Source: a virus (Duplodnaviria; Heunggongvirae; Uroviricota; Caudoviricetes). Taken from it: a stretch of 45,700 nucleotides of DNA. The stretch lies in IMG/VR virus record IMGVR_UViG_2563366840_000010, positions 1 through 45,700 of that record, one strand, 5' to 3'. Under the pieces are notes generated by a model. The model was given only the letters and a program-made list of their open reading frames with translations, had not been told where the DNA came from and searched no databases. Of this stretch, positions 2,835 through 17,455 are shown piece after piece; position 1 is the stretch's first letter; the number at the start of each line of letters is the position of its first letter. The position numbers were made by a program, and so were the translations under genes.

Positions 2835-5800
2835 TTATGCCTGAGTACGCAGCGCTTCAAGGCGGCGCAGGTCGAAGTCGTTCAGTTCGTCGGTGTAGTC
2901 AGCAGTGATTGGCGCTGGCCATTCACCTGTGTCGAATCCGGTTGCGATATTGCGCATCGCTTTGCGGTACTCGAGCATACCCAGCTCCAGTAGTTCAGCG
3001 GATGCCTCGATGATGGCGATCCAGTGGTAGTTCTCGTCTTTGTTGACGAAAATCCAGAAGAACTGATCCAGCGCTGCGGTTTCGCAGTACATAGCCGCGC
3101 TCAGGTGATAATCACGTTCAATAATTTCCCGGTGTAGCCTGGCGCGCAGGCTTTCCTGCTTAACATTCCACATGCTGATGGTTTTCAGGTCTGCACCTAT
3201 ACGCACGCCATCCAGGTCGATCTCAAGGTCAGGGCGCACACGAACTTCCAAGCCCGTCTCCTCGTCAAAACCAAAGTAGCTCACCTCAACGGCTCGGCTA
3301 GGGTGGGTCAGCAGCATGCCGGCGGTCGGGTGTGCCAGAAGCGCTTTTTGAATATTCAGCGCGGTGCTCAGCTGCTGGCGGGTGACCAGCACTTTTCCTT
3401 CCGGGTTATCGCGCCAGGCATCCAGCAGTTCGTCGGCAAATACGGCATCTGGTTTGACTGCCTTCACGGCCTGGATCATGTCTGCTTTGGTACCGGACAC
3501 TTTCAGTGGTGCCGGTTTCTGTGCTTCCTGAGCCACAAGGTCAGGGTTGATGATTGCCAACTGCTCCAGTAGCGCGTCACGGCTGCCGCTGGTTTTAACC
3601 GGCGGCGGCAGGGTGGCGTTGTACTCTTTAATGCATGCCTTCATTGCCGTCGCCGTCTGCTTCTGGTCACCATCAATACGCTGGAAGTCAGCTGGCAGCG
3701 CCATATAGTTCTGTGCCGTTTCTTCCAGGTTAGCGCCAAGCGGAACCTGCGGCGGCAGGGTGGCGTTGTACTCTTCCAGTAACACCTTGATGTCGTCGGC
3801 AGACAGCAGCGCCGGCAGGCTGGCATTGTGCTCATCGATAAAGGCGCGCAGGGTCGCGGCCGTTGTGAATGCGCCTTCAGGGATCACCGGTTCAACGCTG
3901 AATTCTGCGTCCAGTAGTTCAGGCTGCAACGCCAGCGCATGCACCAAGTTGCCCATGTCCAGCACCGCTGAGCGCTCTTTGACGATGGTTTTCTCTACGT
4001 GGCGCGCATTGAAGTACATCAGCGAAACGCGCGCATCTTTCACCTGGGTTGAGCTGATGCCGTTGGCGGCGTGGTAAACCTCGTTTGGCAGCCCTTCATA
4101 GCGGCCTGGCTCGAAATAAGCGGGATAAACAACAGCTGGTTCGTCAGATTGCGCTTCTGGCTCGGTTTGTGCTGCAACTGGTTCGGTTTGGCTTACAGAA
4201 TCGCTATTTTTGGCGACAGAATCCGTATTCTGGTTTACATCGTCCTTCTGGCTGGTATCTGACTCTTCACCAGACTCCAGACTGCTTTCGCCTGGCTGTA
4301 CTTCATCACCAGCTTGTTTTTCATCACTGACAGTTTCTTGAACCTGCACATTGCTGGTGGTCTCCGAAGCCTTTTTCGTGCCATGAGTTGCTGAGTTCTG
4401 CAGCAAAGCCGTAACGTCGAATATTCCGTTGCCGACATTTTTAACCAGTTCTTGTTCGACTTTCTGCGGTTGTGCTGCCGCTTCCTCTGCGCGGCGGCGT
4501 GCTCCTTCTTCACGCACGCGTTGCAGGTTCTCTTCGTGAGTGCAGAAGGATTTGCGCGGAGACTCCTTACCTTCAGGTTGGGGAATTTCCTGTGCTGCGG
4601 GTTCAGCCTCATGCAACGGCAATAACTCGACCGCGGAATTGAACGCGGCTGTCATGGTCTGGTTAACAAATTCCAGGTGAGCGACAGGAGTTAAATGAAT
4701 ATTTTCCGGTGCGATACGTACCAGGTTAAAAATAGCCGTGCGGTTAACACCCAGAACGCCTGGCTGATTGCGCAGGATGTTGCTCCATGATTTCCATGGT
4801 TCTTCTTTTTTGGTCACGATTTCTTTAGCGCGACGAAGAATGCTGCCCGGGATCTCGAAGTGGTTGAAGTCCATAGGCAGAAGGGCACACGCAATCTCTA
4901 AATCGAGAGTGTCCAGTGTGTGGTGTGCGTCAGGTCCACGGTCAGTGACGTAACCGCCGTCGGCATTAGTGCCGGAATCAGTACGCTGCACACTACTGAT
5001 GCGATTACCGGCGGCCCATTCGCGAACGAGGATACCGCGGTCGATGTGAACTGTAGCGAACCACAATTTCAAAAACTGGATTAAGGTTGCGAGTTCAGGG
5101 ATTTTTCCATCGACAGGGAAGACTTTCTTAACGGCATTCACGACTTTATGAATATCGTGCTCAATGGCTTTTTTGAATGCTTCCACATTCTCAGCTGCCA
5201 GCAGCAGGTTCTGGACGTACGCGTCATCGGTGTCCATCTCAAGGCGGACAATCTCATTTTTCTGCCCTGCGTCGATGTGATAGAGATATTCACCATCACC
5301 GATGAACTGAGCCAGTACGCGCTGGCGGAATGGCAGGGTGGCAACAACGATCAGGTTCGGTTGCTGTGTCTGCTGGGATTGCTCTTCGGTATCGACTTCA
5401 CCATCAACGACGCCACCTTCTGCCCGGCCGTTCTCGTCGGTCTGGATACCGTCCTCAACAGTGAGATCTTGACCCGTTGTAACGTCAGCAGCGTTGCTGG
5501 TTTCAGTTTTGAGCAACTGCAACTTACCACTGCGCCAGTCTTCTACCAGTTGATTGCGGTCACCGGCATCGGTGTTCACCCAGTCAGACATGAATGCAGC
5601 GATCAATCTTGGTTCGTGCTCTTCGTCTGGTGTGAAAATGTCCTTAACCGCCCGAATCATTTTCCACTCAGCATTCAGGCTGAGTTTGGCGGTCGCGGGC
5701 ACATCGTTCCTTGCCACAAGCAGGCTATGGAGATATGTATTGCCTTCATCCAGTGACATTTCGCTGGCAGCCAACTGCTGCTCTTTAGTGACGTGGGTTT

Positions 5801-6224
5801 GGTATTTATCGTTCATCAGATGGACGGCAAAGCGGACCGCTGGAGTACGGTTTTCAACCGGGACAATTTCGGACGCAGTCGCATCTTCAACGATTACGGT
5901 CGGAGTAGGTGTGTAGGGGGCGTCAACGGAACCAGTAGACACACCAGCGGCTTTTGGCAGCCAGGTGCGCCCATCGTCCTGAAGCTCGTAGCGATCACAC
6001 CAGGTAAAATCAACTTCACCTTCTTTCGGCAGGCCGTCGACAACTGGGAAATCAGTGCGAATCGGTTTGGCGTAGTCCTTACCCCGACCTGTTTCGATAC
6101 CTGCATCTTCCAGCGCAACATCCAGCATCAGATTGGCGCGAGCCTCGGTTTTAGCAGTGAACCAGACCACTGCATCTTGCTTTCCGGATTTCTGAGTGGC
6201 TTTAACCACATTAAAGAATTCCAT
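2835..6224 (-). CDS. recE: RecE-like exodeoxyribonuclease VIII (1129 aa)
   Basis: N-terminal DFPVVDGLPKEGEVDFTW, mid GNRISSVQRTDSGTNADGGYVTDRG and C-terminal nuclease-domain region GLPNEVYHAANGISSTQ resemble E. coli Rac RecE as I recall it; sits directly upstream of the recT-like gene. Confidence 0.85.
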   Translation of the reverse strand: MEFFNVVKATQKSGKQDAVVWFTAKTEARANLMLDVALEDAGIETGRGKDYAKPIRTDFPVVDGLPKEGEVDFTWCDRYELQDDGRTWLPKAAGVSTGSVDAPYTPTPTVIVEDATASEIVPVENRTPAVRFAVHLMNDKYQTHVTKEQQLAASEMSLDEGNTYLHSLLVARNDVPATAKLSLNAEWKMIRAVKDIFTPDEEHEPRLIAAFMSDWVNTDAGDRNQLVEDWRSGKLQLLKTETSNAADVTTGQDLTVEDGIQTDENGRAEGGVVDGEVDTEEQSQQTQQPNLIVVATLPFRQRVLAQFIGDGEYLYHIDAGQKNEIVRLEMDTDDAYVQNLLLAAENVEAFKKAIEHDIHKVVNAVKKVFPVDGKIPELATLIQFLKLWFATVHIDRGILVREWAAGNRISSVQRTDSGTNADGGYVTDRGPDAHHTLDTLDLEIACALLPMDFNHFEIPGSILRRAKEIVTKKEEPWKSWSNILRNQPGVLGVNRTAIFNLVRIAPENIHLTPVAHLEFVNQTMTAAFNSAVELLPLHEAEPAAQEIPQPEGKESPRKSFCTHEENLQRVREEGARRRAEEAAAQPQKVEQELVKNVGNGIFDVTALLQNSATHGTKKASETTSNVQVQETVSDEKQAGDEVQPGESSLESGEESDTSQKDDVNQNTDSVAKNSDSVSQTEPVAAQTEPEAQSDEPAVVYPAYFEPGRYEGLPNEVYHAANGISSTQVKDARVSLMYFNARHVEKTIVKERSAVLDMGNLVHALALQPELLDAEFSVEPVIPEGAFTTAATLRAFIDEHNASLPALLSADDIKVLLEEYNATLPPQVPLGANLEETAQNYMALPADFQRIDGDQKQTATAMKACIKEYNATLPPPVKTSGSRDALLEQLAIINPDLVAQEAQKPAPLKVSGTKADMIQAVKAVKPDAVFADELLDAWRDNPEGKVLVTRQQLSTALNIQKALLAHPTAGMLLTHPSRAVEVSYFGFDEETGLEVRVRPDLEIDLDGVRIGADLKTISMWNVKQESLRARLHREIIERDYHLSAAMYCETAALDQFFWIFVNKDENYHWIAIIEASAELLELGMLEYRKAMRNIATGFDTGEWPAPITADYTDELNDFDLRRLEALRTQA

Positions 6225-6355: not shown

Positions 6356-6859
6356 TTATGAATTCCTGGCAAATGAACCATGATTCGCTTTGCGGAAGTC
6401 GCGTATTGCTTCCGCAGCCTTTTCTAATTCAATAAAAGTTCCTACCGTGAATCTTTTGCCATTAACTCGGCACATGGCTGTCCAGCGTTGTTTCCCTTTG
6501 TGCCAATAAACTCCTTTCACTCCGCTCGTATTATTTTTCTGAAGCGGTTTATTGAAGTTATTCTGTGAGCAAGTAGCCTCGCGGAGATTCTCCAGCCTGT
6601 TGTCAGAGCAATTTCCATTCACATGGTCAATCTGGTCTTCAGGCCATTTTCCGTGTGTATAAAGCCAGGCCAAGCGGTGTGCTCTGTATTTCTTTCCATC
6701 GATGATGATTCGTACATAGCCGCGCGTATCTAAATTTCCAGCAAAATCACCTGCGGTTATCCGTCCGCGATTTTTGAGCCATGTGAATGCTCCTGTTTCA
6801 GGCGAGTAGCTGAGCAATTCCTTCAGTCGTGCCAGTGATAATTTTTCTCGCATATTCAT
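6356..6859 (-). CDS. HNH endonuclease with AP2-like DNA-binding domain (~167 aa from internal ATG; ORF extends to 6913)
   Basis: HNH motif region DHVNGNCSDNRLENLREATCSQNN plus GVKGVYWHKGKQRWTA..EKAAEAI AP2-type segment. Confidence 0.8.
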   Translation of the reverse strand: MNMREKLSLARLKELLSYSPETGAFTWLKNRGRITAGDFAGNLDTRGYVRIIIDGKKYRAHRLAWLYTHGKWPEDQIDHVNGNCSDNRLENLREATCSQNNFNKPLQKNNTSGVKGVYWHKGKQRWTAMCRVNGKRFTVGTFIELEKAAEAIRDFRKANHGSFARNS

Positions 6860-6864
6860 CACCG

Positions 6865-7026
6865 TTAGCCTTCGTGAGCCATCTGGTCGTGCGAAGCGCA
6901 ACGTTTGGAGCAATACTCTTTTTCTTTGCGCGCCAGCTGTGAGCCGTTGCGATAGAGAAGGGTGCTCTTGATTACTTCCTCCGTTTTAACCGGCTTGCCG
7001 CAATATCCGCATTTCTTGTCTAACAT
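6865..7026 (-). CDS. small zinc-ribbon protein (53 aa, CxxC...CxxxC)
   Basis: Unlisted short ORF MLDKKCGYCGKPV...CSKRCASHDQMAHEG; GGAGG 7 nt upstream of the ATG; fits between two co-oriented genes. Confidence 0.5.
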   Translation of the reverse strand: MLDKKCGYCGKPVKTEEVIKSTLLYRNGSQLARKEKEYCSKRCASHDQMAHEG

Positions 7027-7037
7027 GACATCCTCCG

Positions 7038-7388
7038 CTAGTGGCTGAGTCCATGCCCCAGACCGTTCAGATAAACTTCAACCAGCAAATCCTTGGTGTA
7101 AGTCATTTCTACGCCGCGATGCAGATACAAACGTCCGCGAGCGTTAGCTGATGCCGTCCAGGTTGAGTCTTTGTGTTTGACGAGCATCCCCGGCTGAACT
7201 GCGCCGCGGTTTACTGTCTGTGTACCGTAGTGCTGATGAACCATGATGTTCTCCAGTTTTTCTGAGTGAACTTCGCTGGTGGTGCCGCGGCGCTGATCTT
7301 CACAGTTGAGCGTTTTAACTCTGCAATTCACCACCGCGAAGCTCACTTCTGTGTTTGCCCTTGTCGCCAGGCTGGCGGAACGTTTCAA
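7038..7388 (-). CDS. hypothetical protein (116 aa ORF; alternative start at 7244 gives 68 aa with a better RBS)
   Basis: First gene downstream of the putative pL-like promoter; no recognisable motifs. Confidence 0.35.
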   Translation of the reverse strand: MKRSASLATRANTEVSFAVVNCRVKTLNCEDQRRGTTSEVHSEKLENIMVHQHYGTQTVNRGAVQPGMLVKHKDSTWTASANARGRLYLHRGVEMTYTKDLLVEVYLNGLGHGLSH

Positions 7389-7493
7389 ACCTACTGCGCG
7401 TTAATATCACCACCTCATTCCGGTTTTCGTATGCCCCGGACGGCTACTTCGTGGGCTCCATGCCTGGGTGGTTCGTGGTGCGTCTTGGTGAGT

Positions 7494-7523
7494 TAGATTA
7501 AATCACTGGTTTATATATATGTC
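7494..7523 (-). promoter_or_regulatory. putative leftward early promoter (pL-like): TTGACA-17-TTTAAT on the minus strand
   Basis: Reverse complement of 7518..7523 is TTGACA, of 7495..7500 is TTTAAT; overlaps an operator-like site. Confidence 0.45.
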
Positions 7524-7562
7524 AACTTAAGGTTGGTGTTAATTGTAAATCTGAGGTTTATG
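7496..7562. promoter_or_regulatory. two operator-like sites (oL): TAAAT-N5-GTTTAT at 7496..7514 and 7544..7562
   Basis: Same motif recurs twice between cI-like and cro-like genes. Confidence 0.45.
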
Positions 7563-7599
7563 TGGCTGGGTTTTGTGACACGTCTGCAGAATCGCAGGC

Positions 7600-7640
7600 A
7601 AAAAAAATCCCGACGCTAAGGTCGAGATCGGGGACTTCGT
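7600..7640 (-). terminator. intrinsic terminator (hairpin + T8 on minus strand)
   Basis: Reverse complement reads CCCGA..TCGGG stem followed by TTTTTTTT. Confidence 0.5.
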
Positions 7641-7680
7641 GGCTGGGTGTTGGCGGCTGAGATGGTGGGTGAGGGTGTAA

Positions 7681-7712
7681 AAAACCCGGCGCTGTGGCCG
7701 GGTTTTTTCATT
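7681..7712 (-). terminator. intrinsic terminator, bidirectional (CCCGGC-gctgtg-GCCGGG flanked by A/T runs)
   Basis: aaaaaCCCGGCgctgtgGCCGGGtttttt; downstream of the AT-rich gene on the minus strand. Confidence 0.7.
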
Positions 7713-7832
7713 ACTGCTGGTTAAATCCTTTCGGCGAGTGCTGCTGTTCTTTATTACCAAATTTTTGATTTACAATGATTTTATAAGCGTTATTGAGAGC
7801 TTGCTTTATAGACATTAATATCTCCTTATGTG

Positions 7833-9236
7833 TTATTGACGATTAAAGTAGTTAGAGTTTAGCTCTTTAGGGAAGTAGTGTTTACGATTTACCCAAACAA
7901 ATCCATCAACTTTTGATATCACAGCGACATCAACAGGCCCACCGACAGTTTCATAATCATGTGATACTTTTCTTTTGAATGCAGTGATGTTCACTAATGA
8001 TTCGGCCATATACGCAAGATCTGCCTTCCCAAGTGATTGCAACATCGATATCATTTTATTTGTATGGTTATTAACAATATAGCTTTCAAGTTTAGTATCG
8101 TGATCTTGTAAAAGTACGTTTTTGAGTTCCTCAATTTCACTGGAGAAGTGATTGGCTAGTACTCCATTGTTCATTGCAGGGAAAATATTGCTAGAAACAT
8201 AATGATTAAGCCGATCAAAAACTTCCTCTGTAAGAGTTCTGTTAAAATTAATGATGTTAGGGTTGCACCCATCAATGAAAGTTACTACTTCATCTTCTTG
8301 AGCAAATGGTATAACAAACCCCATATTGGTTACCTCATTATGGGATTTATCATCAATATTATGGATCATCAATTTGTTTTTAAAAATGCCGTAGATATGA
8401 AGAGTGCAAATGGAAGGGTAATATTCTTCCTCTCCATAACCTGTTATAACAATCCCTGAATATGTACGACTAGCATGGACTTTGAAAATTAAACAAGTGG
8501 AATATAATATGACTTTTTCCATAAGCTCTTGCTGTATATTTTCACAGTTATCAAGAACAATAATTGATGAAATGTATGGCGATATTAAATCTTGTATATA
8601 TGCTAAAGCATCATTAAACTCTTCTGTATCAAACCCTTCGAAAAAGAGATTATTCCTTAAGATTCCTATCTCTAAATCAAAGGCTTGCTTAACTATGTTT
8701 TGAAAAATAACATTGTCGAGTTCAACGGCGGGGTTCATTGTTAAATAGTTTACTACATTATTATCATTAATGTATCTCATCAAACCTTTGAGGTTATCAA
8801 CAACAAGGTTTATAACGCAAGCCTCTCTCATTTCATTTGTTATAAGGTCTGAGTTACCATTGATGAATTTTACAAAGTCATTAACATATTCTTTAATGGT
8901 AGGGAAACTAGTTTTCCCCAATTGTTTTCTATAGGATTTAATTATAAGTTCCCACGGTGCGCCACCCAGTGTCGCATTATTATAAATCATGATCCCCACG
9001 GGATGGTGTTTAGATAGTTCGAATAGTTTTTCCGCACTATTATTTATTTTTACTAATCTATTATGCTCTGTGGTGACTGCAGAGTCAGCAGCAAGGGCGA
9101 TTCCAGTATTATTTATTACAACAATCTCAGCTGTCATTGCAAAACATCCCGTGTAGTAGTGATAAATATTAATTAAATTGATAGTTTTTTTCAATCTAAC
9201 ATAAATGGCGGAATCACCCCCCAGTAAAGACATCAT
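7833..9236 (-). CDS. AT-rich accessory (moron) protein with proteasome-beta/HslV-like motifs; likely true start at 9137 (434 aa)
   Basis: Long ORF co-oriented with and 43 bp downstream of the repressor gene; visibly AT-rich; internal start gives MTAEIVVINNTGIALAADSAVTT; C-terminal VGGPVDVAVISKVDGFVWV. Confidence 0.7.
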   Translation of the reverse strand: MMSLLGGDSAIYVRLKKTINLINIYHYYTGCFAMTAEIVVINNTGIALAADSAVTTEHNRLVKINNSAEKLFELSKHHPVGIMIYNNATLGGAPWELIIKSYRKQLGKTSFPTIKEYVNDFVKFINGNSDLITNEMREACVINLVVDNLKGLMRYINDNNVVNYLTMNPAVELDNVIFQNIVKQAFDLEIGILRNNLFFEGFDTEEFNDALAYIQDLISPYISSIIVLDNCENIQQELMEKVILYSTCLIFKVHASRTYSGIVITGYGEEEYYPSICTLHIYGIFKNKLMIHNIDDKSHNEVTNMGFVIPFAQEDEVVTFIDGCNPNIINFNRTLTEEVFDRLNHYVSSNIFPAMNNGVLANHFSSEIEELKNVLLQDHDTKLESYIVNNHTNKMISMLQSLGKADLAYMAESLVNITAFKRKVSHDYETVGGPVDVAVISKVDGFVWVNRKHYFPKELNSNYFNRQ

Positions 9237-9278
9237 TGTCTCATGGGAACTAAAAATTCAGGACAAACCTAAAGCGAT

Positions 9279-9662
9279 TCAGTCCCCCTGCGAGCGAATC
9301 CGCCCCTTCATGTACTTCTCGTACAGCTCATCTAACTCTTTCAGGCGAAGCGCAAAAATGCGGAGCATGTTCTGCTGCTCTTCTTCCGGTAACTGGCGGT
9401 AGAGCTCGAGCAAACGCTGTTCGTCCGGTTTGAGACCGTCTTTCTCTCCAACGTCTTCACCGAGTAGCCAGGCGACAGAAATACCAACAGCGTCGGCTAT
9501 GGCCAGTGCCGATTTCTTACTAATCACGCCTTTTTTGAACCAGCCGTTTACGGCCTGAGGGGTGACTCCAGCTATTCTTGCCATGTCTGCTTTGGTAACG
9601 CCGCGATCAGTGATCTCAGTAAGGCGCTCCACCAGAACGAGGTTGGGTTCTTCTTTTCTCAT
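9279..9662 (-). CDS. CI-like prophage repressor, HTH-XRE type, no peptidase domain (127 aa)
   Basis: HTH segment KADMARIAGVTPQAVNGWFKKG; divergent from cro-like gene; the listed 217-aa ORF is an upstream extension without RBS. Confidence 0.8.
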   Translation of the reverse strand: MRKEEPNLVLVERLTEITDRGVTKADMARIAGVTPQAVNGWFKKGVISKKSALAIADAVGISVAWLLGEDVGEKDGLKPDEQRLLELYRQLPEEEQQNMLRIFALRLKELDELYEKYMKGRIRSQGD

Positions 9663-9670
9663 ATGGTCAT

Positions 9671-9736
9671 TGTAAATATTTGGTTTATGCACGCAATAAA
9701 TCCAAAGTTTGCATGAAGTATAAATCTGTGGTTTAC
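9671..9736. promoter_or_regulatory. oR-like operator region: TGTAAATatttgGTTTATG (9671..9689) and TATAAATctgtgGTTTAC (9719..9736) plus divergent promoters
   Basis: Repeated sites matching the oL copies; candidate pR TTGCAT-17-TTTACT upstream of cro. Confidence 0.5.
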
Positions 9737-9764
9737 TTCTGCTATCAATAAGCAGGAGAAGCAC

Positions 9765-9983
9765 ATGTCCGCACTCGATAAAGCAATTAAAGCCGCTGGC
9801 TCTGCCAGAAAGCTCAGCATCGCGCTTGGTGTGACGAGTATGTCTGTAAGTCATTGGAAGAATCGTGACCAAGGGATCGTCCCGCCAAGCTATATCTTCC
9901 CGATTTTCAAAATGACAGGCGTAACCCCCCACGAGCTGCGCCCTGATCTCTATCCAAATCCCACTGACGGATTACCAAAGTAG
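9765..9983 (+). CDS. Cro-like / YdaS-family HTH regulator (72 aa)
   Basis: AGGAGAAG RBS; small HTH protein divergent from the repressor. Confidence 0.8.
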   Translation: MSALDKAIKAAGSARKLSIALGVTSMSVSHWKNRDQGIVPPSYIFPIFKMTGVTPHELRPDLYPNPTDGLPK

Positions 9984-9994
9984 GAGCACTGACA

Positions 9995-10552
9995 ATGCAA
10001 ACACTTTCTTTTCAACAGAATAACAGAGCGCCATCAGAGCACCTGAAATTCCAGTATCAACACAGTGAGGCTGAAGGCCAGCCGGTCGATCACCGGGCTA
10101 TCTGTTCTGCCGTCCGCGCCTGGGCGGCGGCAGAGGGCCGCGTGGCGGTCGCTCTGGCGATTAAAGAGGCTGCCGAACAGGCCGAGCTTGACAGCATTGA
10201 CATGACCGGCAGCGCCGATGTGTGGAACGTGAAGCTGTTTCGCTGGCTGGACAACCACGAGAAATCACCGGCCTACCGGGCGAACGTCGAGCAGCTGGCG
10301 CCGGTAATAATTTCGGTTCTGCCGCTGGCGTACCGGGATCGCGTGATTAAGCACGACTGCTTTGCGGTTCGTGTCGCCAGGTCGGTGAAAGAAGACGCTG
10401 AGGCGATACAGGCTGTCGTCCTCAAAGCCCCCAGACACGAACGGATGAAGGAAATCAGCGAGAGCATCGTAGCCAAGCTCTACCTGGACGGACCTGATTC
10501 TGTGGCGCCCATTATGGCGATGGTTACAACGATGCTGGGTGGTGCGCTATGA
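9995..10552 (+). CDS. YdaT-like / CII-position regulatory protein (185 aa)
   Basis: Follows the cro-like gene with AGGAG RBS; segment FRWLDNHEKSP..LAPVIISVLPLAYRDRV resembles Rac YdaT from memory. Confidence 0.6.
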   Translation: MQTLSFQQNNRAPSEHLKFQYQHSEAEGQPVDHRAICSAVRAWAAAEGRVAVALAIKEAAEQAELDSIDMTGSADVWNVKLFRWLDNHEKSPAYRANVEQLAPVIISVLPLAYRDRVIKHDCFAVRVARSVKEDAEAIQAVVLKAPRHERMKEISESIVAKLYLDGPDSVAPIMAMVTTMLGGAL

Positions 10553-10636
10553 CGGGCTCAGAAATGGCGAAAGCCGCGGTGCTCGAACACCAACGGCTTT
10601 CAGGTGCAAAAACTGTGCGTAATTGCGGAGAACAGT

Positions 10637-11545
10637 ATGTCAAATACCGCTGAAATAATCAATTTCCCAAATAAAACCGAACAACCGGGAGGTCGTATGG
10701 CCGACCTGTCGAACGGGTATACCAAGGTCGCTAACGAGATCCAACAGCTTAAGCCTCGCCTGAGACTGTCAGGCCGGGAATGGCAATGTTTTGAGGCGGT
10801 GATCTGGCTTACCTACGGCTGGAACAAGAAACAGGACCGCGTGACAAATACGGTTATTGCCGAGCTTACGGGCCTGAGCGATACGCATGTATCGGACGCG
10901 CTTAAGTCTCTCGCAGAACGCAAAATCATCTTTTCACAGAAGCAGGGCATGATGAAAATCGTCGGTGTAAACACTGACCTTTCAGCATGGATTTTAGACA
11001 AACCGGAAACGGGAAGAAAATTCCCGAAAACGGGAAAATCCTTCCCGAAATCAGGAATAACCTTCCCGAAAACGGTAGACACCCAATACAAGAACAAGAA
11101 CAGTATTAAAAGATCTTCGTCCGAGAATTCTGACGAATCCTCTGACGCACGTCTGAAGAAATTTTTATCAACTCATCCTGAAGCTGCGGTCTACACACCA
11201 TCCGGTGCGAAGTGGGGCTCTGCTGAAGACCTCGAGACAGCTAAGTGGATTTCCTCCAGGGTGAAGCTGATTAACCCAACCTGCAAAGCCCCGGACATGA
11301 CCTCCTGGTCTAACACTGTTCGCCTGATGCGCCAGATAGACAACCGGTCGCACCAGGACATCTGCGCGCTGTATGACTGGGCTAGCAAACACCACTTCTG
11401 GCAGACCAACATCCTGAGTCCCGAAAGCCTGCGTAAGCAGTGGGACAAGCTGACAATGCAGCGTAACGCCGGAGGTGAGCAGCGCGCTGTCAAGCCAGAT
11501 CTGGACTTCAACAACACTGACTGGGCCTATGGGGTGATCCGATGA
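10637..11545 (+). CDS. O: replication initiator, lambda O-like (302 aa)
   Basis: N-terminus MSNTAEIINFPN parallels lambda O MTNTAKILNF; GGAGAA RBS; iterons inside the gene. Confidence 0.8.
   Translation: MSNTAEIINFPNKTEQPGGRMADLSNGYTKVANEIQQLKPRLRLSGREWQCFEAVIWLTYGWNKKQDRVTNTVIAELTGLSDTHVSDALKSLAERKIIFSQKQGMMKIVGVNTDLSAWILDKPETGRKFPKTGKSFPKSGITFPKTVDTQYKNKNSIKRSSSENSDESSDARLKKFLSTHPEAAVYTPSGAKWGSAEDLETAKWISSRVKLINPTCKAPDMTSWSNTVRLMRQIDNRSHQDICALYDWASKHHFWQTNILSPESLRKQWDKLTMQRNAGGEQRAVKPDLDFNNTDWAYGVIR
11003..11075. repeat. origin iterons: four copies of TTCCCGAAAACGGGAA-like inverted-repeat units at ~20 bp spacing, followed by an A/T-rich tract
   Basis: Seen directly at 11004..11017, 11021..11038, 11041..11057, 11061..11075; encodes the GRKFPKTGKSFPKSGITFPKT protein repeat. 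Confidence 0.65.
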
Positions 11546-12231
11546 AATCTCTTGCAGAGCAGATGCGTAACCACGACCGCGAGCAGATGAGCCGCATGGC
11601 CCATAACCTGCCAGAGCAGTACCAGGAGTGCGCGCCGGTCGAGCAGGTGGCGCAGGTATTCAACAAGCTGTTCAACGAGCTGCGCGCCGCGTTCCCGGCC
11701 AGCATGGCGAACTTCCGCACCCAGGAAGACCTGAACGAATTCCGCCGTCAGTGGCTGCTGGCGTTTCAGGAGAACGGGATCCACACCATGGCTCAGGTCG
11801 ATGCCGGCATGCGCATTGCCCGCCGCCAGGAGCGCCCATTCCTGCCGTCGCCGGGCCAGTTCGTCGCCTGGTGCAAGCAGAGCGGCGGCGCGCTGGGCGT
11901 CAACGTTGACCAGGTGATCGCCGAATACTGGGACTGGCGTAACCGCTCGTTCGAATTCATCTCCAGCGAGCAATTTCCATGGTCGCAGCCGGTCATGTAC
12001 CACATTTGCGTAGAATTGCGCCACCGCAGCACCGAGCGCCAGTTAACGCATGGTGAACTGGCACGCGAGGCAGGCGATCTGCTGGACATGTGGGAAAGGC
12101 GCGTCACCGAGGGTAAGCCAGTGCCGCCGGTACGCCGGGCTATTGCCGCACCAGCTGCCGAGCAAGGGCCGACGCCGATCCAGCTGCTGCTGGCCAAGTA
12201 CAACCGCAACAAGTCGAACGGGATGGTGTGA
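11542..12231 (+). CDS. P: replication protein P-like helicase loader (229 aa)
   Basis: Start overlaps O stop; position and size as lambda P. Confidence 0.7.
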   Translation: MKSLAEQMRNHDREQMSRMAHNLPEQYQECAPVEQVAQVFNKLFNELRAAFPASMANFRTQEDLNEFRRQWLLAFQENGIHTMAQVDAGMRIARRQERPFLPSPGQFVAWCKQSGGALGVNVDQVIAEYWDWRNRSFEFISSEQFPWSQPVMYHICVELRHRSTERQLTHGELAREAGDLLDMWERRVTEGKPVPPVRRAIAAPAAEQGPTPIQLLLAKYNRNKSNGMV

Positions 12232-12290
12232 CATGAACATAACAATCCGTGAGCAGGTGCTGGCAGCCCTGCGCAACAACCCAGGGTTGA

Positions 12291-12473
12291 ACAACGCCAA
12301 ACTGGCAGGGCTTCCCGGAGTGGTACATCATCGATCAGGACTATCGGGGGCAGAAGTACGCGAAGGACAAGCAGGTTGCGCGTTGTGGCAACGCAGTTCC
12401 GCCGCCATTCGCCGAGGCACTGGTGAGGGCTAATTTACCGGAGCTTTGTCAGCAGAAAGAGATCGCAGCTTAA
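12291..12473 (+). pseudogene. remnant of a DNA cytosine methyltransferase 3' end (...ARCGNAVPPPFAEALVRANLPELCQQKEIAA)
   Basis: Frame opens after a stop at 12288 with no start codon; GNAV motif-X-like tail; overlaps a 66-aa ORF from 12233 in another frame. Confidence 0.5.
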
Positions 12474-12537
12474 TGTCCGAGTTTCAGAACATGGTGTAAC
12501 AAATCCTGCTACTTCAATGACGTAGATTCAAACCTGA

Positions 12538-12543
12538 TATAAT
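12538..12543 (+). promoter_or_regulatory. TATAAT -10 hexamer of a putative promoter for the 78-aa gene
   Basis: Perfect TATAAT 30 bp upstream of the ATG, with a TGAC-containing -35-like region. Confidence 0.4.
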
Positions 12544-12572
12544 TAGGCTCTTCACAACACGAGGAGCCTAAA

Positions 12573-12809
12573 ATGCACCATTACATGATCCCTATCAACG
12601 GAACTGTTCACCTGATCAAGACTGACTCTCTAATCCCTGAAGGGACTGAGTATAGCTTTGAAGGAGAAAGTCTAATCTGCGCTCATGCCACTTTTAAATC
12701 TGGGACGTATGGCTTCCTGATACCAAAGGGAAATCAGTTGAATAGAGAGCATGCGTTCTGGCATGTAAGTGGAATTCACCCTAATCCCCTGGGAATGGAT
12801 AAATCGTAA
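12573..12809 (+). CDS. hypothetical small protein (78 aa), moron
   Basis: GAGGAG RBS; lies between two diverged copies of the methyltransferase 3' end. Confidence 0.6.
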   Translation: MHHYMIPINGTVHLIKTDSLIPEGTEYSFEGESLICAHATFKSGTYGFLIPKGNQLNREHAFWHVSGIHPNPLGMDKS

Positions 12810-16443: not shown

Positions 16444-16518
16444 GGGTCAGTCGTATAAAGGTCATTACGGAAGGCTGTTAACCTTCTTATCGTGGTTCGA
16501 GTCCACGCTGTCCCGCCA
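16444..16518 (+). tRNA. tRNA-Asn (anticodon GTT), phage-encoded
   Basis: Hand-folded cloverleaf: acceptor stem with one T-T mismatch, D-loop with GG, anticodon stem GAAGG/CCTTC and loop CTGTTAA, T-arm CGTGG-TTCGAGT-CCACG, discriminator G, CCA. Confidence 0.55.
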
Positions 16519-16980: not shown

Positions 16981-17397
16981 GCTGCGCGTCAGAGGTTCGA
17001 TTCCTTTGCCCGCTCCAGTAAAAGCTTTCCAGTCTGCGATGATGGGTTCCCCGGAGTGACTGGAAAGCGACCTGGTTTTGAATGGGCGCTGCTTTTTGCA
17101 AAATTGCTGTGTGAAAATACTGACCTTTGGGTTCAGCGCTCATCCAAAAGCATCACGTGAATTCACCAACGCTCATGTACTCTCCAGGAAACAATAAGTG
17201 ATTCTGAAAAGTTCCGGTTAGATATTGCCCCGGTCACCGGATGATTTTATCTTTTGGTTCGTGGTGAATCCCCCTATGCGGCGGGGCGTCCAGTCAAACT
17301 TTTTTGTCCAGGTTTGTTTGCGCGGAACTAGTCGGCTGGGGCTGTTCCACCGGGAGGCACCCGGCGCCACCTCCTTGACGGTATTGTTATTTTTCAT

Positions 17398-17424
17398 GCC
17401 TGTTCGTCCGAGCAGGCTTTTTTT
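17398..17424 (+). terminator. intrinsic terminator (GCCTG-ttcgtccgag-CAGGC + T7)
   Basis: Seen directly; no convincing plus-strand CDS upstream. Confidence 0.6.
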
Positions 17425-17455
17425 GCCCGCATTATCTTCATTGAAAACTGGCAAC

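Follow-up and report, generated by a model that had tools for sequence, protein, structure and literature searches.

The stretch of DNA considered here, referred to as the window, comprises the 45,700 nucleotides of IMG/VR virus record IMGVR_UViG_2563366840_000010, and the element that it represents is a Rac-like lambdoid prophage. Between the kil and repressor genes of this prophage lies a variable cargo cassette of low G+C (GC) content (7709..9282), which holds two genes, a candidate promoter and a terminator. The larger gene (7833..9137, minus strand, stop codon at 7833-7835) encodes a 434-amino acid (aa) homologue of the proteasome-family N-terminal-nucleophile (Ntn) hydrolases, a predicted Thr1 enzyme with two helical inserts. 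The smaller (7711..7815, minus strand, stop codon included) is an open reading frame (ORF) that RefSeq leaves unannotated. It encodes a 34-aa peptide, MSIKQALNNAYKIIVNQKFGNKEQQHSPKGFNQQ.

The larger gene was singled out in an earlier note on this DNA, which described an AT-rich ORF at 7833..9236 (minus strand, 467 aa from its first ATG) beside a repressor gene, with a product resembling proteasome beta subunits and HslV. The ORF exists as described, and the three segments that were quoted from it (TAEIVVINNTGIALAADSAVTT, ITGYGEEEYYP and VGGPVDVAVISKVDGF) are all found in its translation. The repressor gene (9279..9692, minus strand) is of the HTH_3, CI-like type, judged by Pfam HTH_3/Phage_CI_repr and PHROG matches (RefSeq CDS WP_001568769.1). 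Its stop codon is at 9279-9281, placing the ORF 42 nucleotides (nt) downstream, in the same orientation (the note gave 43 bp). The difference in base composition is just as pronounced as had been claimed: GC content in 300-nt windows is 30-37% in the gene and ~50% in the flanks, the bin at 8001-9000 has the lowest value (0.332) among 45 one-kb bins of the window, the next-lowest being 0.423, and the cassette as a whole is 33.9% GC against 51.6% for the remainder of the window.

The limits of the cassette come from blastn alignment to Rac-like prophages without the gene: homology stops at 7616-7708 on the left and restarts at 9283-9307 on the right, and the stop codon of the repressor gene directly precedes the cassette. 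The slot is flanked on its left, as a conserved feature, by a homologue of kil, which encodes an FtsZ inhibitor (7038..7244, minus strand; PHROG 294 Kil, E 9.6e-36, also a RefSeq CDS); kilR has the same relative position in the Rac prophage of Escherichia coli K-12. What the slot holds differs from prophage to prophage. In KL53 and 1368KP it holds other small genes (and, in one of them, IS3), and in K-12 Rac it holds sieB, a superinfection exclusion gene, together with ydaF and ydaG, content for which the cassette is an exact replacement. The cassette itself is present in 13 of 5,426 complete E. coli genomes. It is closed by an intrinsic terminator (7681..7712, minus strand), a perfect GC hairpin followed by U6 (RNA folding energy -18.9 kcal/mol, z -4.5) that starts directly past the stop codon of the small ORF. 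Of the two terminators previously claimed, this proximal one stands, but the distal one does so only in part: the terminator-like hairpin found by pattern scan (stem 7629..7606, then U8, minus strand) has a folding z-score of only -1.5 against shuffles, and it sits in the conserved flank, outside the cassette. The cassette is, then, a horizontally mobile, autonomous two-gene operon carried as prophage cargo.

In 12 other E. coli genomes, identity to the window is 97% over the cassette and the last ~330 nt, at the 3' end, of the repressor gene; homology ends within that gene, at ~9605, and the repressor and Cro/YdaS alleles differ (WP_001619339.1, WP_021543299.1). This pattern suggests that recombination inside the repressor gene may re-assort immunity specificity and cargo.

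The internal Met codon at 9137, favoured in the earlier note, is the true start of the large gene, because the homologues and the matching PHROG profile begin there. PHROG 5990 (annotated 'unknown function'; E 2.7e-178 against the large protein) fits residues 34-467 of the long translation over its full 427 positions. A Met-Thr start is found in 76 of 76 cross-phylum homologues, and alignments begin at residue 1 or 2 in 146 of the 150 top library representatives. In Enterobacter, members of this 90% cluster have an annotated length of 434 aa, where E. coli records have a 33-codon extension. On the profile, the homologue starts and the Enterobacter annotations, the upstream ATG at 9236 was rejected as the start. 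The extension (9138..9236, minus strand), called by the Prokaryotic Genome Annotation Pipeline (PGAP) in E. coli to give products of 466-467 aa, is absent from every homologue and is most likely a non-coding leader. (As annotated in RefSeq by PGAP, the extension buries the catalytic Thr1, a systematic start-site mis-annotation in E. coli.) Inside it, a pattern scan locates a sigma-70-like promoter candidate, TTGAAA-17-TAATAT (9166..9194, minus strand), a match to consensus only; its placement within the cassette and upstream of Met 9137 is consistent with the gene having its own promoter. There is no terminator between the repressor and large genes, so that read-through is also possible. An ORF of 434 codons at 34% GC, with homologues in over 6,000 clusters, is, in any event, far beyond chance.

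Homology of the large protein to the proteasome is detectable solely by profile-profile and structure comparison. Pfam, NCBIfam and PADLOC contain no family that matches the full protein; Pfam PF00227 (Proteasome) matches neither the full protein at E<=1 nor, at E<=10, the 235-aa core that is left when the inserts are removed. Profile against single-sequence hhalign finds no match to E. coli HslV, and a search of BFVD finds no member of the family. When the spliced family profile of the 235-aa core is compared by hhalign with one built from archaeal beta subunits in mature form, the two align end to end over 181-189 columns (E 2e-5 to 1e-4), pairing Thr1 with Thr1, Asp17 with Glu17, Thr21 with Thr21 and Lys36 with Lys33 in mature numbering. 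Counting the initiating Met, these are T2, D18, T22 and K37 (Thr2 becomes Thr1 after Met removal, and Lys37 becomes Lys36), and they are at least 97% conserved in 77 bacterial and archaeal sequences. The codons of the catalytic triad predicted from the alignment and from conservation are 9134-9132 (Thr2), 9086-9084 (Asp18) and 9029-9027 (Lys37), spanning 9027..9134 on the minus strand. In a profile search of PDB sequences, the Thermoplasma beta subunit takes the top three ranks by way of TVGGPIDVAVISKGDGFI / ASGGMIDVAVITRKDGYV (E ~0.9). Against a single archaeal beta sequence, hhalign of the family profile matches the C-terminal motif alone (E 2e-4). The protein has the alpha-beta-beta-alpha sandwich fold of the proteasome type; its AlphaFold2 (AF2) model has a predicted local distance difference test score (pLDDT) of 87.7.

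The structural interpretation first placed on this gene is, therefore, supported, with one motif mis-assigned. The Ntn-type Met-Thr start is shared by all 76 homologues compared and Thr1 aligns with the archaeal Thr1, but the segment ITGYGEEEYYP, which had been likened to the GSG motif, belongs elsewhere: hhalign aligns GYGEEEYYP with GGIDTAPH. Since the protein starts with Met-Thr and has no propeptide, methionine aminopeptidase should expose Thr1, as in HslV; the free alpha-amine of Thr1 would thus follow from the specificity of the aminopeptidase and the HslV precedent.

A single segment of the AF2 model, aa 22-32 (window ~9042-9074, minus strand), has pLDDT <50. It adjoins the active site and holds T22 and K30, both at least 97% conserved, and it may be a mobile loop that orders upon substrate or partner binding.

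The large protein owes its size to its inserts, ~200 extra residues that double the protein, so that it is indeed, as the earlier note had it, more than twice as large as HslV (434 aa against about 175 aa). Insert 1 (aa 98-220; 8478..8846, minus strand) follows core helices H1/H2 at the pore-loop site. In the AF2 model its four helices span aa 101-218, between a helix at 81-94 and a strand at 227-233, and it is missing from the proteasome beta alignment. Insert 2 (aa 293-368; 8034..8261, minus strand) consists of two long helices, 293-322 and 325-368, between core H3 (281-289) and H4 (371-392). There is no insertion between S3 and S4, the strands at 38-40 and 47-53 being adjacent in the model. 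In canonical subunits, the two positions taken by the inserts serve to line the pore and to hold ring against ring. The inserts are the less conserved parts of the protein, the mean top-residue frequency being 0.28 for insert 1, 0.30 for insert 2 and 0.50-0.78 for the core.

This arrangement ties the large protein to a branch of the superfamily already described from sequence. Fuchs, Alva and Lupas (2021) defined 22 new families of proteasome homologues, among them a series designated PMI for their 'multiple insertions' (PMC8665760). An H3/H4 insertion site is common to PMI-2 to PMI-6; PMI-3 (representative OGZ26396.1) and PMI-4 (representative HDY66466.1) have inserts after H1/H2 and between H3/H4 and are set apart from PMI-5/6 and Connectase by having no S3/S4 insertion (PMC8665760). 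PMI-4 is abundant, occurring in most bacterial phyla, in Euryarchaeota and in phages (PMC8665760, Table 1). Judged by insert sites, distribution and abundance as described there, the family to which the window protein belongs is probably PMI-4. It shares with the PMI proteins a proteasome-like core, the Thr1/Asp17/Lys33 triad, inserts after H1/H2 and H3/H4, the lack of a propeptide and of an AAA+ partner, and a broad, patchy spread over bacterial phyla, Euryarchaeota and phages. The authors of the catalogue reported no genomic context or co-occurrence hinting at function and no AAA+ partner, and they argued that inserts at the pore-loop and ring-contact sites might preclude canonical barrels (PMC8665760). 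The fold family was thus already known from a sequence catalogue, with no function attached to it; what is new is the partner gene and the association with cargo slots, neither of which figures in the catalogue. The earlier note knew of no described phage immunity or defence protein with such an architecture, and none was found in PADLOC or the literature.

The family is large. A word-indexed search returned 6,150 matches, all 'hypothetical' and none with a Pfam domain, and an exhaustive search gave 6,074 clusters at 50% identity, 3,384 of them at E<=1e-30; members of the top 150 clusters have a uniform length of 417-457 aa. One genome per species was then scanned, yielding at least 511 confirmed loci, of which the best 80 make up the diverse, cross-phylum set referred to in what follows. 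The bacteria in this set include Gammaproteobacteria, Bacillota, Bacteroidota, Cyanobacteria, Planctomycetota, Nitrospirae, Actinomycetota, Chloroflexi, the Candidate Phyla Radiation and others, the archaea Methanosaeta, ANME-1/2 and Woesearchaeota; the whole set extends over more than 20 phyla. Whatever the phylum, alignments of the best 80 with the E. coli protein extend along its entire length at 30-38% identity. GC content is lower in the gene than in its flanks at 72 of 74 loci (median difference -9.7 points, p=1e-13), which makes the AT-richness first seen in the window a family-wide property. Near-constant divergence across phyla and low gene GC together argue for pervasive horizontal transfer.

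These properties bear on the possibility that the large protein is a general proteostasis protease, self-compartmentalizing in the manner of HslV, Anbu or BPH, that merely hitch-hikes on mobile DNA. The proteasome fold and intact triad are what such an enzyme would have, its neighbours in many genomes are housekeeping genes, and ATP-independent clearance by uncharacterized homologues has been discussed by Fuchs et al. (PMC8665760). Against it stand the rarity of the gene (those 13 E. coli genomes only), a GC content systematically below that of the host, and a degree of identity that disregards phylum, as expected of horizontal transfer and not of vertical housekeeping descent. Its inserts occupy ring-contact sites, and no AAA+ partner has been found, either in the diverse loci or by the authors of the catalogue (PMC8665760). 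We consider a proteostasis role very unlikely.

What does accompany the gene is a small ORF. In the window it begins 17 nt past the large-gene stop codon, with a consensus AAGGAG Shine-Dalgarno sequence 7 nt upstream. Every enteric locus examined has a small same-strand ORF in the downstream position, and it is also found in a Streptococcus satellite, a Stenotrophomonas phage and a Providencia phage (there annotated as a 58-aa hypothetical protein). In the diverse set, an ORF of at least 45 aa starting between -30 and +60 nt from the stop codon is present at 76 of the 80 loci, against 13 of 80 for the reverse complement and 190 of 1600 for shuffled sequences (Fisher p=3e-26); two of the four remaining loci have a truncated copy. 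Starts fall between -29 and +42 nt relative to the stop codon, many of the ORFs overlapping the large gene by 4-29 nt, and from this spacing the micro-protein is predicted to be translationally coupled to the large gene at many loci. In the window, a perfect Shine-Dalgarno sequence precedes the small ORF and none precedes the large gene, which would lead to an excess of the partner; extended to other loci, this comparison has a bias in favour of the small ORF and is no more than suggestive. The partner is the sole conserved neighbour: the 140 flanking genes are spread over 124 Pfam families, and neither an AAA+ partner nor a conserved protein-coding neighbour was found among the flanking genes of the diverse loci.

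The partner ORFs are 34-70 codons long (median 61 aa) and share the motif ...S-x-x-E-[FWY]-E-K-x-[YF]-[FL]-P...DPxx[LI]GxxLA..., the consensus of their hidden Markov model (HMM) being MKKKKKNKKVFKSIEEVEKEYFPKSVEKEKLIKEKEDPEEIGEILAEKSLEKVRKQLEKAKK. The micro-protein is lysine-rich and predicted to be helical; AF2 models one canonical partner as three helices (pLDDT 77.5, predicted template modelling score 0.38). Gammaproteobacterial partners keep an E-W-x-K-x-F-x-P core, but in place of the last helix they have a polar tail with an aromatic residue close to its end. The window peptide is the most reduced form, resembling the Enterobacter bridge sequence MKELEKTIIVNKF. With the ORF that follows the Klebsiella orthologue in the corresponding place it shares 54% identity (tblastn E 1.5e-7). 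Its score against the cross-phylum partner HMM is not significant (-0.9), so that its assignment to the partner family, which we regard as probable, rests on position, the Klebsiella orthologue and the bridging motif. Eight partner peptides gave no Pfam family above threshold. Protein databases contain 13 matches to the partner, all of 54-72 aa and none fused to another domain. Two of them carry a JGI label, 'PrpC phosphatase', that is implausible for a 70-aa protein, the rest being unnamed or 'hypothetical'. The small ORF is an example of a functional partner gene that gene callers systematically overlook. C-terminal sequences reminiscent of HbYX or of the HslU tail (AFSL, TFSM and YFSG in gammaproteobacterial partners) are absent from the canonical partners and were set aside as an activator motif.

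A dedicated enzyme-substrate pair is one construction that can be put on this association: the micro-protein would be cleaved, or ligated in the manner of Connectase, to give a bioactive peptide or a protein tag. Its D-P dipeptide was considered as a Connectase-like cleavage site and rejected, since it varies (DT, DA and NI are also found); it is, moreover, missing in the enteric subtype and resembles a helix N-cap. The Connectase signature of an S3/S4 insertion and loss of H1/H2 is not present in the large protein, and the partner sequences are highly divergent for a recognition substrate. A pairing of that kind seems improbable.

The places in which the gene is found outside E. coli are diverse. 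In four Klebsiella prophages that differ in their replication and recombination modules, a 70%-identical orthologue lies directly after S24-type cI repressor genes and co-oriented with them. Homologues in Enterobacter and Cronobacter lie antisense between the antiterminator Q and holin genes, and in a Klebsiella prophage and a related Stenotrophomonas phage the gene is found between lysis and injection genes. The Serratia homologue follows an integrase-AlpA-primase module, the Vibrio homologue adjoins a filamentous prophage, and in a Providencia phage the pair stands between Q/dam and holin and reads in the same direction as the late genes. The gene is near or at one end in seven Streptococcus satellite records and at the extreme end of two Streptococcus prophages; in satellite Javan421 (9297-12658), the record inspected, the pair belongs to the accessory region, and a HAD hydrolase gene and a RelB/RelE toxin-antitoxin pair come after it. 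The gene is also on ten plasmids. In the records examined from enteric bacteria, streptococci and phages, then, the pair occupies slots of the kind used by prophages and satellites for exclusion and defence genes, namely the sieB slot of Rac, the position after cI, the gap between Q and holin, and PICI-like accessory ends. Among the genes directly adjoining the loci of the diverse set are known defence genes (type I restriction-modification, Avs1a, LmuA, SoFic, DRT, PDC-S02/S03 and Zeta toxins), mad2 and CI repressors.

Carriage by temperate phages and satellites, the adjacent repressor in the window and the co-orientation of the Providencia pair with late genes between Q and holin would all suit a function that benefits the prophage or satellite itself, perhaps by countering defence, removing a host factor or steering the lysis-lysogeny switch. 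Most members of the family are, however, chromosomal in diverse bacteria and archaea with no adjoining phage genes, and in prophages of Enterobacter, Cronobacter and Klebsiella the gene runs antisense to the late operon, as morons expressed in the lysogen typically do. We give this explanation little chance.

The layout of the pair also invites comparison with selfish toxin-antitoxin-like addiction modules, in which the protease would be toxic, the micro-protein would neutralize it and post-segregational killing would keep the pair on mobile elements, with no dedicated role against phage. The two genes are adjacent, often overlapping, translationally coupled and autonomous, with a single terminator after both in the window; their distribution is patchy and horizontal and their GC content low; they are on plasmids and satellites, beside RelBE in Javan421, and have Zeta toxins among their neighbours. 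The partner, on the other hand, has no recognizable antitoxin DNA-binding domain (helix-turn-helix, ribbon-helix-helix or AbrB; Pfam search of the eight peptides), a toxin of 434 aa would be unusually large, and exclusion-gene slots fit defence at least equally well. An addiction module is, on balance, not likely. It overlaps with the reading that we favour, because many toxin-antitoxin systems are defence systems.

That reading is that the large gene encodes a lysogen-expressed phage-exclusion or abortive-infection protease regulated by the micro-protein. We put its probability at about 0.45. The pair would be expressed in the lysogen, from its own promoter or by read-through off the repressor gene, and the micro-protein would bind the protease stoichiometrically, restraining it as an inhibitor or directing it as an adaptor. 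The variable helical inserts might sense an incoming phage; alternatively, the signal might be the disappearance of the micro-protein once host expression stops. Release would then permit Thr1-dependent proteolysis of a phage protein or of an essential host protein, and productive infection would be blocked, as it is by Lit. Lit is the protease of prophage e14 that aborts infection; it is a zinc metalloprotease and not an Ntn hydrolase, and the analogy is one of function, for the proposed mechanism only. In favour of this reading are the fold with its near-invariant triad, the conserved partner gene, the occupancy of cargo slots, the low GC content and the defence genes among the neighbours. 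Conservation in the inserts that is about half that of the core is expected of a sensor surface. The exclusion role and the roles given to partner and trigger are, all the same, purely inferred.

Several observations weigh against this view. Low conservation of the inserts could just mean weak constraint. In the Ser129/Asp166/Ser169 scaffold of the active site, the 129 region aligns with SG-x-PFAQ, the canonical Ser169 is Val398 here by hhalign, and Asp166 has no aligned acidic residue, the nearest candidate being E396, which is at least 97% conserved and four residues off. The window peptide is truncated, divergent and without an HMM match, making its function here less certain. Outside the enteric bacteria, many of the genes alongside are of the plain housekeeping sort (CTP synthase, ThiC, Hsp70, PGK), so that the apparent defence-island signal is tentative. 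A link between the family and defence finds no support in PADLOC, the literature or the DefensePredictor supplements: PADLOC-DB v2.0.0 has no family at E<=1 for the large protein, and searches of the full-text literature and of those supplements turned up no functional description of the family. The broader proposition, that the more than 6,000 clusters in bacteria and archaea constitute a widespread two-gene immune or conflict system in which a Thr1 protease is gated by a co-translated micro-protein, is doubtful.

Comparison with the known systems sharpens what is distinctive about the pair. Relative to the beta subunits of the 20S proteasome (MEROPS T1, PF00227), the window protein fails to match PF00227, carries the ~200 extra residues and the Val in place of Ser169, and has neither a propeptide nor an alpha subunit to go with it. 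HslV (ClpQ), whose pore loop is very short, has HslU, an AAA+ protein encoded next to it, as its partner; the much larger window protein, with its two inserts, has a micro-protein partner instead, no AAA+ or hslU-like gene being present among the most frequent neighbour families listed or in the window flanks. Connectase (MJ0548) lacks H1/H2 and has a two-helix insertion between S3 and S4, whereas the window family retains H1/H2 and is inserted elsewhere. With SieB (Rac, lambda) and RexAB (lambda) the resemblance is one of location, these exclusion genes lying in the same kind of slot, and in K-12 Rac sieB shares the very kil-repressor slot; the Rex, SieB and Lit families are not among the Pfam or PHROG matches of the large protein.

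The 2021 catalogue of PMI proteins stated that no context hinted at their function (PMC8665760), and the present locus provides one: a micro-ORF conserved just downstream, and residence in the cargo slots of prophages and satellites, which make the family directly testable. If the pair does act in defence, it would provide the first case of a proteasome-type enzyme with an antiviral role in prokaryotes and give the PMI homologues their first function; Ntn threonine proteases would join bacterial immunity, and the proteasome fold would be tied to prokaryotic antiviral conflict. Even if the defence reading is wrong, a protease and micro-protein pair spread over more than 20 phyla is a tractable entry to an uncharacterized branch of the proteasome family.

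Several other features of the window may be mentioned. Divergent from the repressor gene is a YdaS/Cro-like gene (9765..9983, plus strand; ORF list and RefSeq), beyond which lie YdaT and then the replication genes. On the opposite side of the cassette are kil, an HNH endonuclease and RecE. The conserved interval between kil and the cassette (7389-7640, minus strand) terminates in the distal hairpin, 7629-7606, and U8. In K-12 Rac, the equivalent position, upstream of kilR, is that of the small RNA KilS; an Rfam search of the window gave no match at 7389-7640. The HNH endonuclease gene (6356-6913, minus strand) is placed between recE and the ydaE/kil genes and encodes a protein of the homing-endonuclease type with an AP2 DNA-binding domain (PHROG 99, E 4e-72). 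The RecE-like ORF (2835-6224, minus strand) is, at 1,129 aa, considerably longer than K-12 RecE (CDS 2,601 nt, ~866 aa), and its product contains long stretches of low complexity, acidic and rich in Q, in the N-terminal two thirds. Downstream of the replication genes, Rfam matches identify a tRNA gene (16444-16515, plus strand) and a full-length STnc100 small RNA (17236-17428, plus strand).

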